A stretch of DNA of 45,316 bases from Mariprofundaceae bacterium (GCA_046753585.1 JBHHTX010000001.1:1-45316), one strand, 5' to 3'. Counted from the first letter of the stretch, positions 34,778 through 43,077 are shown. Notes: generated from the letters alone by a model not told the origin. Made by a program: numbers and translations.

Positions 34778-35380
34778 CTAATGAAGGTAACGCGTCGCTT
34801 CCAAATGTTCGGGGTATCTGACGAGCACACGTTCATACCTGGCTGCAGCCAGATCTTTTTTCCCCTGCCAGGCATAAGCACGTGCCAGGTAAATCAATGT
34901 GGTCGCATCGGATGGATAGTAGCTTGAAAACAGGGAGGCGTGTTTTTCCAGCGTCTGCCATTGTTTCAAGCCTTCTTCACATACCATTAAACGGGTATTG
35001 GCCGTATAATTTAATGGCGACTTAGCCAGTACCTGCTTTAGATAACGCATGGCTTCCTTCCATCGTTTCTGTGCCATCAAAGGCAGAGCGATTCCGAGCC
35101 TGGCATCAAATGATCGTGTGTTCTGCTCCAAAGCCTGCTGATATGCCTTTATAGAATCGTTGAAATTACCCTGAAGATAGTTCAGCCAGCCATACCGTAA
35201 GCGGGCAAATTCATGATCTTCCCCCTTACCCAATAAAGGCACCAGTACGGCAGCTGCCTTTTCGTATTCACCCTTCGCTTCCAACGTATAGGATGAGCTC
35301 CATGGGCTACTGTTTTCCTCAGCCGAGGCAATATGCACACAACATAGTAGAGCAATCAGAATCAACATTGATCGATACAT
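34778..35380 (-). CDS. Periplasmic TPR-repeat protein (last gene of the candidate operon)
   Basis: Signal peptide MYRSMLILIALLCCVHIASA, followed by about 4-5 TPR-like helical repeats (...AIKAYQQALEQN..., ...EAMRYLKQVLAKSP..., ...LAAARYERVLVRYPEH...). AAGGAGA lies 8 nt upstream of the ATG. Confidence 0.75.
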   Translation of the reverse strand: MYRSMLILIALLCCVHIASAEENSSPWSSSYTLEAKGEYEKAAAVLVPLLGKGEDHEFARLRYGWLNYLQGNFNDSIKAYQQALEQNTRSFDARLGIALPLMAQKRWKEAMRYLKQVLAKSPLNYTANTRLMVCEEGLKQWQTLEKHASLFSSYYPSDATTLIYLARAYAWQGKKDLAAARYERVLVRYPEHLEATRYLH

Positions 35381-35395
35381 TATTTATTCTCCTTC

Positions 35396-36295
35396 TTACC
35401 ATTGTTTGGAAATATTCAGATAAAGAAACCGGTTGTCGTAGCTGTCACCGATATTGTTATTCAGGTAATTTTCATTGCCGCCTACCATCAGTAAGCGAAA
35501 AGATTCTGCCAATCGCCACTGCAAACCGAGGGAAAGAGAACCTCGCTGGATATCGGCAAGATTGTAAACAACGGCGGCATCACCATCGACAGCATAAATT
35601 CTTTCACCTGCAAGACCACTGACCTGCAACTTTTCCAGCCGGTGCCAGGCACCCGGGTCAAACCAGTGCATCCATTTAGCCTCAACAGCAGTAGTATTGT
35701 TTTTGCTCTGGGCCCGCAAGCTATTGCTAGGATCGATAAAATATCCTCTGAGCTGAATCCAGTCAGATGAGTCATTGAAGGCGAAACCGAACGTGGGGGT
35801 GAACTGGTGTACTTCCAGATTATTCAGATACTTTGAATAGGCATAGCCGAAATCGACATACAATGTCTTGGCGTAATTCATAAACGAGAACTGTGGCGCG
35901 ATTACTTTGACATGGTCCGTATCACCGGTAATATCGTTGTTGTATATGCTGTGCCCGTCAATTCGCAACGTCAGCGGGCCGGGAATTGCATCAAAATACA
36001 AATTGTAATGCAGGCTTCCGTATAGTGCCTGCTGGTTGATATCGTTCATGGTATTAAACTTCAGCCTGGTGTAGTTACCTCCCAGAGAAAATCCACCCTG
36101 TTCAAGATAATCAGCACTTAAAATCAGGCCACCTCCGGCAATGGAGCTGCGATTTGCTGAACCACTGTAATTGCCATAAATTCCCTGAACATCAGTTTTG
36201 ACAGACCAGTCTCCCTCAGCAGCCATACATGCATACTGCATATTTAACATGAACCCTGTAATCACAAGGCCAAAGGTCAGACATCGTTTTTTCAT
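35396..36295 (-). CDS. Outer-membrane beta-barrel protein, uncharacterised family
   Basis: I take the start as ATG 36295 (GGGAG 6 nt upstream), giving MKKRCLTFGLVITGFMLNMQYACMAAEG. After the signal peptide there are alternating-hydrophobicity strands rich in Y/G/N, and a C-terminal aromatic residue (...YLNISKQW). The ORF-track start at 36442 overlaps the upstream gene. Confidence 0.7.
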   Translation of the reverse strand: MKKRCLTFGLVITGFMLNMQYACMAAEGDWSVKTDVQGIYGNYSGSANRSSIAGGGLILSADYLEQGGFSLGGNYTRLKFNTMNDINQQALYGSLHYNLYFDAIPGPLTLRIDGHSIYNNDITGDTDHVKVIAPQFSFMNYAKTLYVDFGYAYSKYLNNLEVHQFTPTFGFAFNDSSDWIQLRGYFIDPSNSLRAQSKNNTTAVEAKWMHWFDPGAWHRLEKLQVSGLAGERIYAVDGDAAVVYNLADIQRGSLSLGLQWRLAESFRLLMVGGNENYLNNNIGDSYDNRFLYLNISKQW

Positions 36296-36317
36296 AAAGC
36301 GCTCCCGTTTGCCTGTA

Positions 36318-38483
36318 TCATGTTTTGATTTTCCATGCAGGAATACCTGCATCCGCCTTTTGGCCAAGTTCCAGCAGAGAAGCTTCAAATGTTGTGTTCC
36401 CGCTAAGCAGCGTAATATTTTTGCAACCAAGTCGGGGCTCAATACATACCGTTGTTGTGGCCTTCAGGCCGGAGCCAAACGGTAGTTTAAGATGGTGTTC
36501 ACCGCGTTGCTGCCAGTTCTCTCCATTCCATTGACGCAGATAATGGCTGTCGATACCGCTGCCCATCGGCAATAACAACCAGTTTATCAGGCGTTGCGTC
36601 CTGGTTGTTGGAATCAGATGCCTTGAAGGTTGATCTCTCCAGGACAGTTCACCTTCCGTAAATGGCGTTAACCCCAAGGCAAGCAACCATGTATCCAGCA
36701 AGGCATCAACCGGCCCTTCGCGGTCATAAAATGCAAGCAAATTATCCTGACAGGTAAATGCTGCACTGGCTCCGGAATCAGTTACCAGCCTTAACTGGCC
36801 TGAATGGTTCAGCGAGATATGCATGTCTCGCTCGCCTGTTTCTCCATTTTCTGTGACCCGGTAACAGAACTCCCTGCCTACGCTTAATTTCAGGCTTTCA
36901 AGTAAAGCTGCTTCAACCTTCGGCGTTTTCACCCGCTCGCCAGCCAATGGACGGACAAATAGCTTGAACTGAGCCCGGGAGTTTTCTTCGGGCTGGTGCA
37001 AAACGGTGCTGAGATGAAAAGGGTGCGTGGGGCTACCCAACGTTTCTCCCCATTGAACATGCAAGTGCAAATGAGGCTGTGGAGAACGTCCTGAACTGCC
37101 GCATTCAGCCAGTTTTTGGCCCGGGTTAACGTACATCCCTGTTTCTACGCTGAGACTTCCCTGCTTCAAATGCGCCAAAAGGGCAAATAATCCATTATTC
37201 ATACGAATCAGCACATGATTGCCCCAGTTGTTATCCATATCCACCTGGCCGGGTAAATTATCCGGAAGACTGTCCAGGGTTTTCACCACGACCCCTGTAA
37301 CAGGAGAAAGGACAGGCAGGCCAAAACAATAATAGTCATTAAGACCGGCACCATCGGTGCGATAACTCTCTGCGTTTTCAACAATATAAAAATCAAGTGC
37401 GTGCTGCCAGGGTGGCTGGTGCGTGTGTGGCCCGTCAAAACCTTGATAAATTTCCCATTGGCCATAAAAGGGGGCCAGCACAGGCAGACTACCGAATTCA
37501 CCATGCCGAGCCAGAGCCAGACGGGCTCGTTCCGAACTTTTTTCAGGCAATGCCGGATCTTCCAGAATAACTTGCAGAGATTTTGAAGCCGGTCGTTTGG
37601 TTAATGCCAGCAGAATAGTTGCGGTGGTAATCAGAAAAGGCAGCGCCATCACCGGCAGGCCATATACCAGCATAAATGTTTCCGTGGCGGAGGTTACCAG
37701 CGCGGCAACTACAGCGCCGACCATGGCCAGTAAAAAACTCTGCAGGCCCGGAACTGTGAATATGCCACCCAGAGCCATGGCAACAAGAATAAAATTAAAA
37801 CCGTTCCATGCAACAAGGTCAGGGTGGGGACTTCCGGTCAGAAACGCATAGGTTGCATAGCCGCAGAGAAAACCTGCAATGGCCAACAGCATAAGATAAC
37901 GGGATGTAATGGCCAGTCCGATCAACATCAGCAGGCCGGCAATCGGATGTGGAGAAAAAAATGCGGAGCCCAGCGCGGTCAGGAATTGATCAACAGATGG
38001 TGACACAAGTTCCTCGTAGGGAGCCAGCGGTAGCAGGTAACGACTGAGCGTGCCGTAACTGTGAGCGGCCAGAGTTACGGTCAGGGCAACCACTACAAAT
38101 GGCAGACTCAGTGCTGGCAAGCGATCCAGACGCCACAATACATCAGCCATCGCTACAGTCGCAAATACGGCCAGCAAAGCTCCCAGCACAATCAATACAC
38201 CGAGATAGAAATCAAGTTGGTAATAGGCTCCCAGAGACAATCCGACCAGGAGACTGTTGTAGACATGTAAGCCACTCTCAAGGTTTCTGAATTTCAGCAG
38301 CCTGGCCGTGAACATGCCGACCGCAGCCGCCAGGAGCCCGGAAAGTCCTATATTGGGAAAGTAGAACGTGGCAATGAGAAACAGGCTGCCAACCAGCGGT
38401 CTTTCAGCAAATAGAATCGATCCATAAGCCCTGACCAGACCGGCTGCTGTTTTCTCGAAAGTTTTCAGTGGTTTATCAGACAA
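36318..38483 (-). CDS. Fusion protein: urea-transporter-family (UT) channel domain, M23 zinc metallopeptidase domain, and an uncharacterised C-terminal domain of about 240 aa
   Basis: The UT two-fold internal repeat is visible: YGSILFAERPLVGSLFLI / LGSAFFSPHPIAGLLMLI; GLHVYNSLLVGLSLG / WNGFNFILVAMALGG; LPALSLPFVV / LPVMALPFLI (aa ~15-297). The M23 motifs are HALDF (HxxxD) and PHLHLHV (HxH), with GNHVLIRM between them (aa ~335-480). It has a TTG start, 2 nt after the decarboxylase stop. Confidence 0.85.
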   Translation of the reverse strand: MSDKPLKTFEKTAAGLVRAYGSILFAERPLVGSLFLIATFYFPNIGLSGLLAAAVGMFTARLLKFRNLESGLHVYNSLLVGLSLGAYYQLDFYLGVLIVLGALLAVFATVAMADVLWRLDRLPALSLPFVVVALTVTLAAHSYGTLSRYLLPLAPYEELVSPSVDQFLTALGSAFFSPHPIAGLLMLIGLAITSRYLMLLAIAGFLCGYATYAFLTGSPHPDLVAWNGFNFILVAMALGGIFTVPGLQSFLLAMVGAVVAALVTSATETFMLVYGLPVMALPFLITTATILLALTKRPASKSLQVILEDPALPEKSSERARLALARHGEFGSLPVLAPFYGQWEIYQGFDGPHTHQPPWQHALDFYIVENAESYRTDGAGLNDYYCFGLPVLSPVTGVVVKTLDSLPDNLPGQVDMDNNWGNHVLIRMNNGLFALLAHLKQGSLSVETGMYVNPGQKLAECGSSGRSPQPHLHLHVQWGETLGSPTHPFHLSTVLHQPEENSRAQFKLFVRPLAGERVKTPKVEAALLESLKLSVGREFCYRVTENGETGERDMHISLNHSGQLRLVTDSGASAAFTCQDNLLAFYDREGPVDALLDTWLLALGLTPFTEGELSWRDQPSRHLIPTTRTQRLINWLLLPMGSGIDSHYLRQWNGENWQQRGEHHLKLPFGSGLKATTTVCIEPRLGCKNITLLSGNTTFEASLLELGQKADAGIPAWKIKT

Positions 38484-38485
38484 AA

Positions 38486-39880
38486 TTATTTTTGCTTTTG
38501 GGTCTCTACTGAGCAGAGGTGTGCCGGAATCCTCTCCTGTGCCGTTACCGCTTCCAGATCCTCAGCGGCACGTACTACCGAGACCTGTTGATCCGTATGC
38601 ACCATTACGACATTCGGGCGATATTCGATAAACTGCATCCACTGGGTGTTGTTGTAAGCGCCAACCGGACTGAAAATAAGCGCATCACCAATGCTAAGCG
38701 GGGGCATCATCACCGACGAGCGCATTACATCGATATTCATACAAAGCGGGCCGTACAACACGGTATCTTCCGGCACACCTTCCAGTTCCCGTGTTGGCAT
38801 AACCTGATGATTGTACCAGAAGCTGGTGAACAGGACATTGACGCCGCCATCGAGAACCACCGAGCGACGGCCATCCGGCATGCGCTTGTTGGCAACCACG
38901 GACGTGACAAGAATCTCCGTGTCATCCACCACTGCCCGGCCACTTTCCAGAATTAACCGTGGTCGACCCTTGCCCTGCAAGTCGCGTTCTCTGGTGGCGT
39001 CATTCAATGCGGAACAAATGGCGTCAGCATACTGATCCATGCTGGGGACAACCTGCTCCGGCGGTAGATACGTTCCCTGCAGGGAGTTCATTGATGCAAA
39101 ACCACCGCCGATATCGATGCTTTCAATGCTGCAACCGGTTCTTGATTCCACCGCATCCATAAAAGAACACATGATACGAACCTGGGCCGCATAGGCGCGG
39201 GGATCAAGCACAAAAGTGCCCAGGTGGCTGTGTAATCCAGTCAGGTTCAGATGCTTGCTTTCACCCAGAATACGGGCTGCATCCATCGCCTGACCGGATT
39301 CGATATTAAAACCGAAACGGCTCCAGGGTTCAGTGAATCCGGTATCAAAATTCAAACGCATGGTCAGATCAATCTGCTTATCAGCCCCGGCAGCCACATC
39401 TTCAAGCAAATACAGCTCATCCAGATTATCCAGATGAATACGACCACCCTCCGCTACTACGCGTTCAAGAATAGGCCGCTCCTTGTGGGGGCCATTGAAC
39501 AATATTTTCTCAGCCGGCACACCCAGCGATCGGGCTTTTTCATATTCAAAGGCAGAAACCACCTCTGCCCAGGCCCCTTCCTGATGCAGTGTATTGCAAA
39601 CTGCTGCCAGATAATTGGTTTTGTACGACCAGCTGTAGGTAATATTGGAATACCGTGTTTCAAAGGCACGTAACAATTTACGCACATTATCGCGCAAGCG
39701 TTTCTCCGACAGAATAAACAGCGGTGATCCGAACTCTTCCAGCAGAGGCGCAATGGTTGCGCCTTCAAAGCTGTCCTGAAAATGACTACTGCCGGCACTG
39801 CCAAACTTGTTTAACGATCCGATCCGGTGCGGCGTCAAGGTGGGTTTACTCCATGTTTTTTTACCTTCTTTCTGACTCAT
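38486..39880 (-). CDS. Type III PLP-dependent decarboxylase (Orn/DAP/Arg decarboxylase family 2, LysA-like); substrate unknown
   Basis: FGSPLFILSEKRLRDN, PLP-lysine motif YSWKTNY, DIGGGF, and C-terminal beta-barrel part with GPLCMNIDV and GAY. There is a 4-nt ATGA overlap with the upstream ATP-grasp gene. Confidence 0.85.
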   Translation of the reverse strand: MSQKEGKKTWSKPTLTPHRIGSLNKFGSAGSSHFQDSFEGATIAPLLEEFGSPLFILSEKRLRDNVRKLLRAFETRYSNITYSWSYKTNYLAAVCNTLHQEGAWAEVVSAFEYEKARSLGVPAEKILFNGPHKERPILERVVAEGGRIHLDNLDELYLLEDVAAGADKQIDLTMRLNFDTGFTEPWSRFGFNIESGQAMDAARILGESKHLNLTGLHSHLGTFVLDPRAYAAQVRIMCSFMDAVESRTGCSIESIDIGGGFASMNSLQGTYLPPEQVVPSMDQYADAICSALNDATRERDLQGKGRPRLILESGRAVVDDTEILVTSVVANKRMPDGRRSVVLDGGVNVLFTSFWYNHQVMPTRELEGVPEDTVLYGPLCMNIDVMRSSVMMPPLSIGDALIFSPVGAYNNTQWMQFIEYRPNVVMVHTDQQVSVVRAAEDLEAVTAQERIPAHLCSVETQKQK

Positions 39881-40971
39881 GCTGCCTCTCCGTCCATTTT
39901 ATTCGTGTTTGCGGCATAGTTACCGTGTATTGCCATGGATTCAAATGTACTCAGATCAATGACAGTTTCCTGTGCATAGCGAATCATCATCATGCCTGTT
40001 TTCGGCTCCTCAAGTTTCGGCTTCCGGCCCATTATCAGTTCAACCAGAACGGCCGGCAGATTGCTGCCAGCTTTAGCAGCCAGGTAAATCCAGGCCGGAA
40101 AACGCGGGTTAATTTCAATCAGCAGATATTGTCCATCCGATTCTTTAAGCATTTCCACTTCCAGCGGGCCCGCCCATTGTAGTTCCTGCACCAGTTTCAG
40201 AGCATCTTCCTGCAACTGAGCATCCTCGATGGTGACACATGACCAGGCCTTGCCCTTATCGGTTACAGCCTGTTTTCGCATCATCACCGAACCCAGAAGT
40301 TTGCCCTTACCGTCACCGACAGCAGTCAGGTTCACTTCATGGCCTTTGACGTAACGCTGAACGAGTACAGGATACCCCCAGCTTGCTGCAACCCGCTTGA
40401 ATGCTTCGGCACCTTCATCGGCATTGTGCACAATGCTGGCGTCATAAAAGACCCCCTTCACAACCATCGGGTATTTCCAGCCATCTTCGTGGCAGCTATA
40501 GAAGAAACGGGCGCTGGTAATGTTTTTTGTTTCCGGATAACGGATGCCGGCACTCTTCGCCAGATCACCCAGCCTATCCTTGTTGCGATCACGTAACTGA
40601 TTGACATCGGGTATTAACATCCGAATGCCCAGGTGTTCAAACTCGTGGAGCAAACGGCTAAAGCTGAGAAGCTCTGCATCCAGGCAGGGGATGAGGACAT
40701 CAATGGATTCCTGCTCCCGAATAAAATGCATGCGCTCCATCAGTTGTTGCTCTCCGGCCGAGGGATACGGTAGCAGGTATGCTGTATCACATATTTCATG
40801 CAGGTAAAGTCCTGGATCAAGCACATCATACCCCAGTCCGACAATACGAATCTGCTCTCCATGCGCTAATCTCAGGCAGCGGGCAACTGCCAGACCGGGA
40901 CCCGGATTATCCGGCTTGGCATTCATGCCGGTGATAGCAATGGTTAATTTGTTCTGGCCGGATGTACTCAT
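39877..40971 (-). CDS. ATP-grasp superfamily carboxylate-amine ligase (PylC/CPS-like)
   Basis: N-terminal pre-ATP-grasp Rossmann region (LTIAITGMNA...); ATP-binding YPMVVKG, LVQRYVKGHE, and Mg/ATP motif LLIEINPRFPAW. Both ends have 4-nt ATGA overlaps. Confidence 0.85.
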   Translation of the reverse strand: MSTSGQNKLTIAITGMNAKPDNPGPGLAVARCLRLAHGEQIRIVGLGYDVLDPGLYLHEICDTAYLLPYPSAGEQQLMERMHFIREQESIDVLIPCLDAELLSFSRLLHEFEHLGIRMLIPDVNQLRDRNKDRLGDLAKSAGIRYPETKNITSARFFYSCHEDGWKYPMVVKGVFYDASIVHNADEGAEAFKRVAASWGYPVLVQRYVKGHEVNLTAVGDGKGKLLGSVMMRKQAVTDKGKAWSCVTIEDAQLQEDALKLVQELQWAGPLEVEMLKESDGQYLLIEINPRFPAWIYLAAKAGSNLPAVLVELIMGRKPKLEEPKTGMMMIRYAQETVIDLSTFESMAIHGNYAANTNKMDGEAA

Positions 40972-41786
40972 GTCAGGAATTTGCGCAACTGGCCGGAAAA
41001 ATCTGTGATATCACGCTGGGCATTGGCTTTACTGACTTCGAAATCACGGACAATAGCAACGAGAAGTGCCTCGGCATCGTTGCTGTGTTGTAGAAAATGC
41101 ATTATATACATACCCACTTCGTTGGCGGTAAAGCTTCGTCCATTAACCGGATCAAAGACAAAGCCACTGTCGTTCAAAGCTAGCCTTTGCATCACGTCCA
41201 TGGACGGGAAGATGTTATTGCCGGATTCATTTTTTTCCCATGGTAATTGATTCATCAATCGCTCCTTTTGCCTGTTCCGGTCAGGGTTTTCGGGATTCCA
41301 GGCACGGTAGATTGACCGCATCAAATGATCATTTAAAACGTCCGATGCAATCCCTATGGGTGTTGAACTCAACAGCTCTATTCTTGTCTGTATCACACGC
41401 TGAAACTGAGACCGACAGATTTCCAGTTGTTGGCGCAGATACGGTGTATCCATTGGCTGACAACACAGGAAATTCAACAAAGACTTATCTTGCAGTAAGT
41501 GCTGCAACAGATAAATCAGGCCATCACGACCTGCCGGCATTGCTTCCAGCAACAAACGAAGCTTGTCACCACGTGTTTCCACCCAGTTGGCAAGCATGGC
41601 CTCCTTGGATGAGAAATGCCGAAACAGTACACCGTCGGATATATCGGATTCTCTGGAGACTTGCTGGGTTGTCAGAAAGGCCAACTGATCCCTGGCCGCA
41701 ATACAATCGATGGCAAGTAGCACTTGCTGACAGCGCTTTTTTGTGGTCTCAGTTTTGAGCTGATGTTTACCCATATGCCGCATCAA
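40968..41786 (-). CDS. TetR-family transcriptional regulator with a C-terminal PqqD-like (RiPP-recognition-element-type) domain
   Basis: TetR HTH TTQQVSRESDISDGVLFRHFSSKEAML (aa ~38-66). The C-terminal ~77 aa, LALNDSGFVFDPVNGRSFTANEVGMYIMHFLQHSNDAEALLVAIVRDFEVSKANAQRDITDFSGQLRKF, follow the PqqD-family pattern (small beta-sheet, then a 3-helix bundle, ending D-[VI]-x-x-F-x-x-x-L). Confidence 0.75.
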   Translation of the reverse strand: MMRHMGKHQLKTETTKKRCQQVLLAIDCIAARDQLAFLTTQQVSRESDISDGVLFRHFSSKEAMLANWVETRGDKLRLLLEAMPAGRDGLIYLLQHLLQDKSLLNFLCCQPMDTPYLRQQLEICRSQFQRVIQTRIELLSSTPIGIASDVLNDHLMRSIYRAWNPENPDRNRQKERLMNQLPWEKNESGNNIFPSMDVMQRLALNDSGFVFDPVNGRSFTANEVGMYIMHFLQHSNDAEALLVAIVRDFEVSKANAQRDITDFSGQLRKFLT

Positions 41787-41913
41787 AAATGAGAGTGTTT
41801 ACTTTCACAAGCTTTTTTTGCGTGGCTCTGTAAATAATAATTCAGCCTCCTTCTATTTTTAAATAAGATCGAAACAGGATTGTCACTTAACTGCCCGGAA
41901 TTTTGCAAGAAGT

Positions 41914-43077
41914 TCATGTCTTTTCCCGATTGATCCATTTTTCGGCCGTTGCTACGCTTATAAAGGATCCCAGAATAAGGAAACTGCCCTGTTTCAAGCC
42001 GCACACCTCTGCCTGCAAGGCATCTGCGAGGCTTTTATAGCTCGCGTCAGATGTTCCATTCATTGCGGCGGATGTAATAAGCCGCCCCGTATACGGGCGA
42101 AGCAGGTTTAGTGACCCGCTCAGACAACGATCCTCGCGACAAAAAACAAAGATTGCCTCAAAAGGGGTGGCCAGGGTCTCCAGGCTTGGAAGCAAGGCCT
42201 CGATGGCATGCTGATTGTGCGCTGCATCAAGCCAGAAACGCATTTCCCCCCGTTCAATGCATTGCAACCGCCCGGGAATAAGGGTTGCTGCAATGACTTT
42301 CCGGGCGTGATCAAGGCTATTATTGTAATAGCCCTGTTTCTTGAGCCTTTGCACTGCAGCAAAGGCAAGATCAGCATTGATTCTCTGATGCGCACCACAG
42401 GCTGCAAGATTGGAAAGGTCTGTCGTCTGACTTAATATATCTATGTCCTGCTTATGTGAGCGCAATACTTCGGCAACCTTCGGCACTTGAGGAGCGCTGA
42501 TTGCCCATTGGCAGCCGTTCATAGCATGGGCCTTTTCACGGGCAATATCGGATAGCGACGCCCCCAGCCAGTTCTGATGATCGAGGCCAACGGGGGTAAT
42601 CAGAGCCATGTTTGCCGGTACAGCGGTGGTGGCATCAAGGCGAGCTCCGACTCCTGCTTCCAGTATCTCAACATCAACCTGCCTGGCGCTAAAAAAACTT
42701 AAGGCCAGTACCGTGGCCATTTCAAAATAGCTGGCACCAACCTCCAGCGCTTTTGGCATCAGGTCATTAAGGAGCGATAACAACTCCGTATTACTTATTG
42801 GCAGGCCATTGATTTGTATACGTTCATTAAATTGATGAATATGCGGGGAGGTATACAAGCCTGTTTTCAAACCGCAATCAACAAGTGCGCGGCTCAACAT
42901 GAAAGCGGTAGAACCTTTGCCGTTGGTACCTGCAATACGTATCCGTAATGTTGGGGTGGCCAGCACCACCTGCTCCAGAAGACTTCGCATGCGGGTATGT
43001 CCCGGCTGATAGTGACGGTCTGCAGTCGGAAGGCCCAGTTGCTTTAGCCAGAATTCAATGTTTATGGAGTTGGTCAA
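41914..43077 (-). CDS. folC: Bifunctional folylpolyglutamate synthase / dihydrofolate synthase
   Basis: P-loop GTNGKGST, Mur-ligase fold motifs (ITPVGLDHQNWLG) and DAAHN. Confidence 0.9.
   Translation of the reverse strand: MTNSINIEFWLKQLGLPTADRHYQPGHTRMRSLLEQVVLATPTLRIRIAGTNGKGSTAFMLSRALVDCGLKTGLYTSPHIHQFNERIQINGLPISNTELLSLLNDLMPKALEVGASYFEMATVLALSFFSARQVDVEILEAGVGARLDATTAVPANMALITPVGLDHQNWLGASLSDIAREKAHAMNGCQWAISAPQVPKVAEVLRSHKQDIDILSQTTDLSNLAACGAHQRINADLAFAAVQRLKKQGYYNNSLDHARKVIAATLIPGRLQCIERGEMRFWLDAAHNQHAIEALLPSLETLATPFEAIFVFCREDRCLSGSLNLLRPYTGRLITSAAMNGTSDASYKSLADALQAEVCGLKQGSFLILGSFISVATAEKWINREKT

Follow-up and report, generated by a model that had tools for sequence, protein, structure and literature searches.

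A conserved gene cassette that joins a PqqD-domain protein, an ATP-grasp ligase and a fold-type III decarboxylase to a urea-transporter-like channel fused to an M23 peptidase

The window analysed here, a stretch of 45,316 nt from a Mariprofundaceae bacterium (GCA_046753585.1 JBHHTX010000001.1:1-45316), carries on its minus strand a block of six open reading frames (ORFs; 34778-41786) coding for a TetR-PqqD fusion, an ATP-grasp ligase, a fold-type III pyridoxal-phosphate (PLP) decarboxylase, a urea-transporter-type (UT) membrane domain fused to an M23 metallopeptidase, an outer-membrane barrel and a periplasmic tetratricopeptide-repeat (TPR) protein. In the reading that we favour, with a probability of about 0.35, these genes constitute one autonomous, horizontally shuffled cassette for peptide-guided ligation and decarboxylation, whose product would be clipped by the M23 peptidase and released through the UT channel and the porin. 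The RRE (recognition element of ribosomally synthesised peptides with post-translational modifications, RiPPs) and the M23 peptidase speak for a peptide, and the ligase related to carbamoyl-phosphate synthetase (CPS), the FslC-like decarboxylase and the UT fold, taken with channel and porin, point to a small amide or amine. The initial annotation of this DNA had suggested ligation plus decarboxylation followed by processing and export, which remains a reasonable hypothesis.

The gene set recurs well outside this genome. A genome scan with the UT-M23 protein as query returned 22 Zetaproteobacterial loci, and a metagenome scan with an alignment of the ATP-grasp protein, which found at least 497 encoded relatives, returned 80 loci with ATP-grasp identities from 84% down to 42%. 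Comparison of neighbourhoods showed essentially the same order across 101 distinct loci with differing flanks and, as had been proposed from the window alone, the block behaves as a self-contained accessory module, co-inherited in varied chromosomal contexts. Gene counts were obtained by tblastn with the six window proteins over 101 non-identical loci, the denominators being the loci long enough to tell. PqqD adjoins ATP-grasp in 93 of 94 loci, the decarboxylase follows in 71 of 72 and the UT-M23 fusion comes next in all 56, with the barrel present in 36 of 43 and the TPR gene in 40 of 43. The invariant core is thus made of four proteins (PqqD, ATP-grasp, decarboxylase and UT-M23 fusion), and the outer-membrane pair is a frequent accessory; the barrel is undetectable in several loci and is dispensable in some lineages. 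One exception, L037 (loci are designated by L numbers), contains PqqD and ATP-grasp only, followed by glyS.

All 22 Zetaproteobacterial loci contain the six genes in unchanged order wherever the locus is long enough, and only one of them, L001 (91% identical), shares the folC/accD flank of the window, indicating that the window derives from a Mariprofundus-like zetaproteobacterium and that the block occupies different places in related genomes. Gene order was also kept around homologues of about 50% identity on long contigs, from Magnetococcales, metagenome contigs, a tubeworm (Tevnia) endosymbiont and a 3.79-Mb Endoriftia-like genome, and the identity of the core proteins drops to 27-46% among the approximately 100 loci with the same order. 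Among the named carriers are Zetaproteobacteria, Gammaproteobacteria (including the Tevnia tubeworm endosymbiont), Magnetococcales and Desulfurivibrionaceae, and a group of low-GC loci (0.32-0.44) also carries the cassette.

In the window, the six minus-strand genes are all present at the positions first assigned to them. The ATGA overlaps between regulator and ligase (40968-40971) and between ligase and decarboxylase (39877-39880) are both real, and the remaining gaps lie within the range of 2-22 nt originally reported: 2 nt between decarboxylase and UT-M23, 22 nt between UT-M23 and barrel, and 15 nt between barrel and TPR gene. As for internal terminators, of which the initial annotation had seen none, terminator-like hairpins were not enriched (9 versus 7.9 expected from shuffled sequence). 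The block is flanked, as described, by a convergent sppA on one side and by folC-accD-MBL-fold gene-trpA on the other; an anomaly in GC content was looked for in the block and none was seen. One gene had to be redrawn: the barrel ORF as listed started at TTG 36442, overlapping the gene before it, and its true start is most likely ATG 36295, which is preceded by GGGAG, yields a normal signal peptide and agrees with all orthologues. The neighbourhood of the block within this window includes sppA, uppP and lgt.

All the Pfam domains forecast for the six proteins were found, the fifth protein, the barrel, being without any family. Matches of the six proteins to NCBIfam, a set of curated naming models, all fell under their cut-offs, indicating that no curated functional family covers them. 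The earlier statement that the set has no characterised counterpart still holds, with neither a curated family match nor a description of the cassette in the literature searched, where a query for Zetaproteobacteria and urea transporters also gave nothing relevant. The combination of UT and M23 is listed as a domain architecture, without function, in a 2026 survey (PMC12998343). Full-length UT-M23 was not found among PLSDB plasmids, which yielded only stand-alone M23 relatives. A defence-system reading was dropped after PADLOC anti-phage models gave no match for any of the six proteins.

The first gene (40968..41786, minus) encodes a protein with a TetR-type helix-turn-helix at residues 38-66, followed by a TetR-like body and, at the C-terminus, a PqqD/RRE-type domain (residues about 200-269; window 40980-41159). 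Both Pfam matches exceed their cut-offs (PqqD, 6.7e-07, 30 bits versus 23.4; TetR_N, 9.1e-06, 25.8 bits versus 24), and the top NCBIfam match, under its cut-off, is a lasso-peptide PqqD chaperone; from its sequence, the PqqD domain looks like an RRE. The region of its beta-strands is strongly kept across 99 loci (RLALxDSGFVFDPxSGxSFxxN...ERDxxEF), and the C-termini are variable, which argues against a LysW-type carrier; a LysW-like role depending on a conserved acidic C-terminus was ruled out on these grounds. The assignment as a TetR/PqqD regulator stands as far as the domains are concerned, but the TetR fusion (260-280 aa) is lineage-specific, occurring in about 23 of the 99 PqqD proteins, and most relatives have a free-standing PqqD of 80-105 aa. 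The strict adjacency of PqqD and ATP-grasp argues that the ligase is RRE-dependent.

The ligase gene (39877..40971, minus) was recognised as ATP-grasp by Pfam, NCBIfam and PDB profile searches. Its top Pfam family is ATPgrasp_Ter (8.7e-11), its top NCBIfam match reaches 104 bits against a cut-off of 390, and PDB sequence and profile searches return the large chain of carbamoyl-phosphate synthetase and 2pn1, an uncharacterised structure among the best matches, and then biotin carboxylases, Ddl and PylC. By sequence, the protein belongs to the CPS-like / PRK12767 / ATPgrasp_Ter clade and is predicted to be cytoplasmic; its E-x-N Mg/ATP motif (EINPRFP) is invariant, and the database contains at least 3359 homologues at E<=1e-5. 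A graspetide/microviridin-type ligase of the MdnB/MdnC clade was considered and found no support, since the PDB searches return the proteins just named and no MdnC.

The decarboxylase gene (38486..39880, minus) was identified from Pfam, NCBIfam and solved-structure matches, with Orn_Arg_deC_N at 1.9e-33 and Orn_DAP_Arg_deC at 1.5e-13. Its score of 199 bits with NCBIfam lysA (TIGR01048) is below the equivalog cut-off of 297.9, and its 196 bits with FslC (NF041039) are below the cut-off of 500, so that neither name can be assigned. The best solved structure is the FslC N-citrylornithine decarboxylase 7kh2 (2.3e-50), followed by the best diaminopimelate (DAP) decarboxylase (7.8e-37) and BtrK (4e-21); judged by these matches, the enzyme is closest to the N-acyl-ornithine type, with a predicted cytoplasmic location. 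LysA-like paralogues such as FslC, SbnH, BtrK and MccE typically use a diamino acid already acylated at its distal group. The PLP-lysine and the GGG, E(S/P)GR and Cys motifs are kept, as read from the sequence. An N-terminal extension specific to the family (residues 8-27; motif W..P...G..NKFG, kept in 88 different sequences that cover all lineages) may serve to dock a partner, for instance the RRE.

The most distinctive component is the UT-M23 fusion (36318-38483, minus), for which we built an AlphaFold2 (AF2) model from 40 database homologues (predicted local distance difference test score, pLDDT, 87). Its UT domain (residues 16-294; 37602..38438, minus) matches Pfam UT at 1e-53, and over residues 1-300 the model overlays UT-B, UT-A and dvUT, a channel of Desulfovibrio, with Foldseek template modelling (TM) scores of 0.76-0.86. 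The score with TIGR03441 (urea_trans_yut), 111.6 bits, falls short of the equivalog cut-off of 274.6, and both threonines of the LPxxTxPF signatures are replaced, by S126 and A280, substitutions that are near-invariant in the family. Neither urease nor urea-metabolism genes were linked to the cassette in any neighbourhood examined. With a Ser/Ala pore and no linked urea genes, the label 'urea transporter' is probably wrong in substance.

The peptidase domain (residues about 333-480; 37044..37487, minus) matches Pfam M23 at 1.4e-12 and, in Foldseek, DipM, EnpA, Csd1/2, lysostaphin and LytM. Residues H355, D364, H438, H471 and H473 are invariant in the 40 homologues; the first histidine lies 8 residues from the aspartate, as opposed to the usual HxxxD arrangement, and H355 is probably the ligand, because the canonical histidine position is less conserved. 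Comparison with the NCBIfams of the murein endopeptidases MepM, DipM and ShyC gave less than 30 bits, against cut-offs of 300-740. Downstream of the tenth UT helix there is no further transmembrane or hydrophobic segment, the M23 domain following directly, and both ends of the UT membrane domain are rich in Lys and Arg. Together with the intracellular termini of UT-B (PMC12998343), these features predict that the M23 and C-terminal domains are cytoplasmic, a site that is unusual for the M23 family. The set is predicted to extend from cytoplasm to outer membrane, as first described, with the M23 and C-terminal domains on the cytoplasmic rather than the periplasmic side.

The nearest plasmid relatives of this M23 domain are stand-alone proteins anchored by transmembrane segments, from Thermus and several haloarchaea. 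In a Thermus plasmid (L115, 5635-6594) and a Haloplanus plasmid (L116, 5593-6669), M23 lies behind an N-terminal multi-transmembrane region and shares with the cassette enzyme the motifs G.PD..SHSW, DYYxFG.P[VI]LAP and CG.SG.SSEPHLHF. These similarities point to a distinct membrane-anchored M23 subfamily that includes archaea. To our knowledge haloarchaea lack murein, which weakens a peptidoglycan role for the domain.

The C-terminal domain of the fusion (residues 484-721; 36321..37034, minus) is family-specific, mostly beta and confidently modelled (pLDDT about 90). It gave no match to Pfam or to PDB sequences, searched with single sequences and with a profile, and, a single cyanophage chain apart, the top 50 listed Foldseek matches of the whole fusion are to UT or M23 structures. 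Among 1.84 billion representatives, the domain is found in 135 clusters, almost always at the C-terminus of proteins of 700-770 aa.

The barrel gene (35396..36295, minus) gave no match to Pfam, NCBIfam or PDB sequences with either single sequences or profiles, including the DUF560, PgaA and BcsC families. Its AF2 model, built from 39 homologues (pLDDT 92.9), has 14 strands, and its top Foldseek matches are the monomeric 14-strand CymA and OmpG (TM 0.53-0.69, 8-13% sequence identity), with PgaA, BcsC and PelB ranking under them. A signal peptide and a terminal aromatic residue (W/F) are conserved in the orthologues, and all homologues named by any source are called 'hypothetical protein'. The TPR protein (34778..35380, minus) matches many TPR Pfam families (TPR_19, 5e-14), all generic, and has a weak match to TPR_Slam (28.5 bits versus a cut-off of 35.2). 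It has a cleavable type-I signal peptide, and a signal peptide occurs in all orthologues.

From these components, we propose the following sequence of events. The cytoplasmic RRE domain would present the carboxylate of a peptide, possibly a scaffold or substrate encoded elsewhere, to the ATP-grasp enzyme, which would couple it, as an amide, to a diamino acid of the Orn, Lys or DAP type through the amine of the side chain. The decarboxylase would then strip the alpha-carboxylate that is still free, in the way that FslC acts on N5-citrylornithine, leaving an N-acyl-diamine end similar to putrescine or cadaverine. M23, held where the UT-type channel opens to the cytoplasm, may cut off the modified end, and the resulting small linear amide or amine could leave through the UT pore, where the central Thr/Thr constriction has become Ser/Ala. 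Passage of the outer membrane would be by the OmpG/CymA-like barrel, with the TPR protein as a putative periplasmic adaptor. In Zetaproteobacteria, TetR-PqqD might also be the cassette repressor, its RRE domain sensing the same peptide.

Several points weigh against this proposal. The UT pore is very narrow, and only a small linear product could pass it. RimK, LysX and MdnC, representatives of known peptide- or protein-modifying clades, are absent from the PDB matches of the ATP-grasp protein, and the cytoplasmic location of M23 is predicted by homology and the positive-inside rule. Finally, no conserved small ORF exists upstream of PqqD, downstream of the TPR gene or between genes in the approximately 100 loci. 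A more far-reaching reading, to which we give a low probability, is that UT-M23 is an unrecognised kind of processing-coupled release machine, in which cytoplasmic M23 cuts a small fragment bearing an amine or amide from a scaffold peptide held by the RRE and already modified by the ligase and decarboxylase, and the fragment is fed into a re-tuned urea-type channel for exit through the porin. If true, this machine would represent a new class of peptide-templated small-molecule pathway, and would give a bacterial UT channel its first physiological role not concerned with urea.

As to the precursor, a short ORF at 41783-41917 had been put forward as a seventh gene and possible precursor. This ORF is conserved in no relative, including the 91%-identical L001, and it overlaps the conserved operator/promoter motif described below; we rejected it because its only 'conserved' residues translate this DNA motif in two frames. 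A conserved precursor in or beside the cassette was sought across about 100 loci and found in no lineage.

Two types of small protein near the cassette deserve mention. A gammaproteobacterial lineage has two tandem, 97%-identical 98-aa proteins beside the cassette (L024, 3178-7050; L030, 2203-5713), both Sec-signalled, with a TEGG motif and a pair of cysteines. They neighbour genes for a Peptidase_C39 protein, a SPOR/DUF3187 protein and a TPR-methyltransferase; weaker copies occur in L047, L051 and L053. On the contigs of L024 and L030, the orientation with respect to the cassette is not the same. In the low-GC loci L094, L099/L100 and L108, an ORF of about 90-100 aa ends just before PqqD; its middle part is LTxxQ/Spy-CpxP-like and its tail is rich in Gly and Pro (...GPPSMRPPGGPPGGGGPSMR, for example). 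This is probably an envelope-stress protein; we note its glycine-rich end beside an M23 system.

The missing precursor is more easily accommodated by a purely small-molecule route, which we rate somewhat less probable than the favoured reading. Here the ATP-grasp enzyme would activate bicarbonate/carbamate, citrate, an amino acid or the like as its small carboxylate and join it to ornithine or lysine, followed by FslC-like decarboxylation and release through the UT-type channel and porin, with PqqD and M23 as protein adaptors or gates. The product, an N-acyl- or N-carbamoyl-diamine, could be a urea with substituents, an amide of a polyamine, a building block for a metallophore or a compatible solute. 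Such a route agrees with the kinship of the ligase to carbamoyl-phosphate synthetase and biotin carboxylases, with a decarboxylase whose nearest match, FslC, has a small N5-acyl-ornithine as its substrate, and with the confirmed fold of the channel, since UT channels carry small amides. The variable stress-type regulators adjoining the cassette (TetR, AraC and two-component systems) and the metal-resistance or RND genes near some loci also fit. Nevertheless, it gives no function to two of the four core components, in spite of the near-constant position of PqqD and the invariant catalytic residues of M23, and no IucA/IucC-type synthetase, TonB receptor or uptake genes were found beside the cassette in the loci examined.

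Both of these components would find a place in a classical RiPP pathway, which we nonetheless think unlikely. A precursor encoded elsewhere in the genome would be bound by the RRE, ligated and decarboxylated, and its leader cut by M23, so that the mature peptide is the product and UT-M23 resembles a peptidase-containing exporter or merely anchors the protease in the membrane. An RRE domain does adjoin the modifying enzyme (with the PqqD match above the Pfam cut-off, and in 93/94 loci), the protease is intact, OmpG/CymA-like barrels could pass solutes of about 1 kDa, and the tandem 98-aa genes lie with a C39 peptidase near the cassette in one gammaproteobacterial lineage. However, the 98-aa proteins are Sec-signalled and lineage-specific, the search in and beside the cassette yielded no precursor, the ligase falls outside the known RiPP clades, and a folded or bulky peptide cannot pass a UT pore.

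It is still less probable that the cassette edits the cell envelope, working from the inner side of the membrane on precursors of peptidoglycan or on stem peptides that are being recycled. The LysA-like enzyme would then act as a decarboxylase at the free D-centre of meso-DAP bound in a peptide, or at that of a ligated diamino acid, the ATP-grasp enzyme would add a residue in the manner of D-aspartate ligase, and M23 would trim stem peptides, altering the charge of the wall or its tethering to the outer membrane. Characterised M23 members are mostly murein endopeptidases, and those of MepM, DipM and ShyC type give the weak matches reported above; the decarboxylase is related to LysA, outer-membrane and TPR proteins belong to the set, and uppP, lgt and sppA lie near the cassette in this window. 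Yet these envelope-gene neighbours are not kept at other loci, M23 is predicted to be cytoplasmic, its nearest relatives include proteins from murein-lacking haloarchaea, and UT and PqqD are left without explanation.

Given that characterised UT channels are passive and bidirectional, the flow could also be inward, with an external small amide or urea-like compound entering through the porin and the UT domain to be processed in the cytoplasm by the ligase and decarboxylase, in a module for uptake or sensing. The confirmed fold, the porin in the cassette and the variable adjoining regulators are compatible with uptake, but an ATP-consuming ligase and a decarboxylase follow an anabolic logic, no catabolic genes (urease, amidase or deiminase) are linked in the neighbourhoods examined, and the RRE and M23 remain unexplained; we give this direction little credence. 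A fortuitous adjacency of unrelated genes is refuted by the same order in about 100 loci, at identities down to 27-46% and with unrelated flanks.

Each of the closest known systems has at least one defining feature that is missing from the cassette. The synthesis of rhizoferrin by FslA/FslC in Francisella, and SbnH/PvsE-type steps in siderophore synthesis by NIS (NRPS-independent siderophore) enzymes, use, as the cassette would, a LysA-like fold-III decarboxylase after ligation at the distal amine of ornithine, but the cassette ligase is an ATP-grasp enzyme and not an IucA/IucC NIS synthetase, siderophore uptake genes are not linked, and PqqD, UT-M23, the porin and the TPR protein have no counterpart there. 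In butirosin synthesis, BtrI/BtrJ/BtrK pair an ATP-grasp enzyme (BtrJ) with a LysA-like PLP decarboxylase (BtrK) acting on an amino acid tethered to a carrier; the cassette has no acyl carrier protein, and a peptide bound to the RRE would act as the tether if one is used. An RRE adjoining a modifying enzyme, with a protease in the set, is also seen in PQQ, lasso-peptide and PEARL/3-thiaglutamate systems and in that of MccD/MccE; PQQ and PEARL/3-thiaglutamate are scaffold-peptide pathways, and MccD/MccE carry out the aminopropylation of microcin C, in which MccE is a fold-III decarboxylase serving as a tailoring step, as may be the case here. In contrast to these systems, the cassette has no linked precursor gene and its protease is an M23 domain fused to a UT channel; we know of no CPS-like ATP-grasp enzyme that is an RRE client.

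For the transport components, PCAT exporters, which combine C39 and ABC domains, offer an analogy only: they fuse a cytoplasmic-face peptidase to an inner-membrane transport protein, as predicted for UT-M23, an arrangement hinting that cleavage and release are coupled, whereas the cassette fusion has neither an ABC nor a C39 domain and its membrane part is a passive, narrow UT-type channel. With Yut, dvUT and UT-B the fusion shares its fold (TM about 0.8) and the length of its membrane domain; unlike them, it has 420 extra residues (M23 and C-terminal domain) and no linked urease. The 14-strand barrel is shared with the OmpG/CymA porins. Pairing of a barrel with a periplasmic TPR protein is likewise found in export systems (AlgK/AlgE, PgaA, BcsC and Slam), from which the cassette differs in that barrel and TPR are separate small proteins.

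In public records, these proteins are labelled only as 'urea transporter', 'carbamoyl-phosphate synthase large subunit', 'ATP-grasp domain-containing protein' or 'hypothetical protein', labels apt to mislead as to how iron-oxidising and symbiotic chemolithotrophs metabolise nitrogen. We place the cassette among RRE-assisted or amide-ligase/decarboxylase biosynthetic modules; its putative UT-M23 release device could yet prove categorically new. If the proposed logic is true, it would bring a new class of RRE client enzyme, a cytoplasmic role for M23, a non-urea substrate for the UT fold and a dedicated new route of release across two membranes. Even with the mechanism wrong, there remains a compact, conserved and well-defined gene set of about 7 kb that is widespread.

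An alignment of Zetaproteobacterial loci revealed a 30-nt motif (CTTGTGAAAGTAAACACTCTCATTTTTGAT; 41782..41811, minus), a predicted operator/promoter, that lies directly upstream of TetR-PqqD in all of them, amid DNA that cannot be aligned. Within the motif, positions 41790-41807 form the inverted repeat TGAAAGT-N4-ACTCTCA, and the operator-like motif is unique in the window versus 0.07 matches expected. Its core occurs once per TetR-PqqD locus and twice in Endoriftia-like loci, where one copy precedes the TetR-PqqD gene and another lies about 270 nt ahead of a free-standing PqqD, and it is absent from the 87 other loci, including those with free-standing PqqD only. We infer that the conserved inverted repeat is a candidate operator of TetR-PqqD. 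The repeat is situated between a candidate -35 (TTGTGA) and a candidate -10 (TTTGAT), 17 nt apart, which together agree with 8 of 12 consensus positions and rank under the scan threshold used. The regulator probably begins at the conserved ATG 41774, about 7 nt past the -10-like TTTGAT, which suggests a near-leaderless transcript starting from around this codon. The regulator gene has no Shine-Dalgarno sequence, and the alternative starts TTG (41786) and ATG (41783) are not kept in relatives.

Loci that lack the TetR head have other regulators next to the cassette (OmpR-type two-component pairs, hybrid sensor kinases or AraC), so that conditional expression seems a constant theme. Several Mariprofundus genomes have a hybrid sensor kinase of about 900 aa after the TPR gene, on the same strand and with a gap of 41-95 nt (L003, 13828-16566, and equivalents in L005, L006, L007 and L021); the kinase of L003, the only one scanned, has the domains HAMP-HisKA-HATPase-REC-Hpt. 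In other taxa, OmpR-type two-component pairs are found just upstream of the cassette.

The Endoriftia-like loci (L027, 2420-7514; L029, L034 and L112) contain a full TetR-PqqD gene as well as the free-standing PqqD that heads the cassette. The former adjoins a large multicopper oxidase gene, which is split or disrupted by an insertion sequence in some genomes, and the region lies within a mer/copper/RND metal-resistance island. Between the two PqqD genes, there is the second operator copy and a short ORF resembling the TetR N-terminus (MKDMLSGLDRLAAQAGLL), which looks like a decayed duplicate of the fusion.

Two divergent forms of the cassette illustrate its variation. In the low-GC variant L106 (3217-11038), a barrel-like protein of 301 aa and a protein of 187 aa are encoded upstream of PqqD, a 635-aa FG-GAP-repeat protein is encoded between PqqD and ATP-grasp, and UT-M23 has just 533 aa, without the C-terminal domain. 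In the most divergent group, also of low GC and represented by L096 (12891-15693), a protein of 406 aa with weak TPR/DUF7840 matches takes the place of the 300-aa barrel, and similar spacing is seen in L100, L102, L108 and L110. In L096, the TPR gene is followed by a gene for a CMAS-like S-adenosylmethionine methyltransferase, and a divergent AraC-type regulator gene lies upstream.

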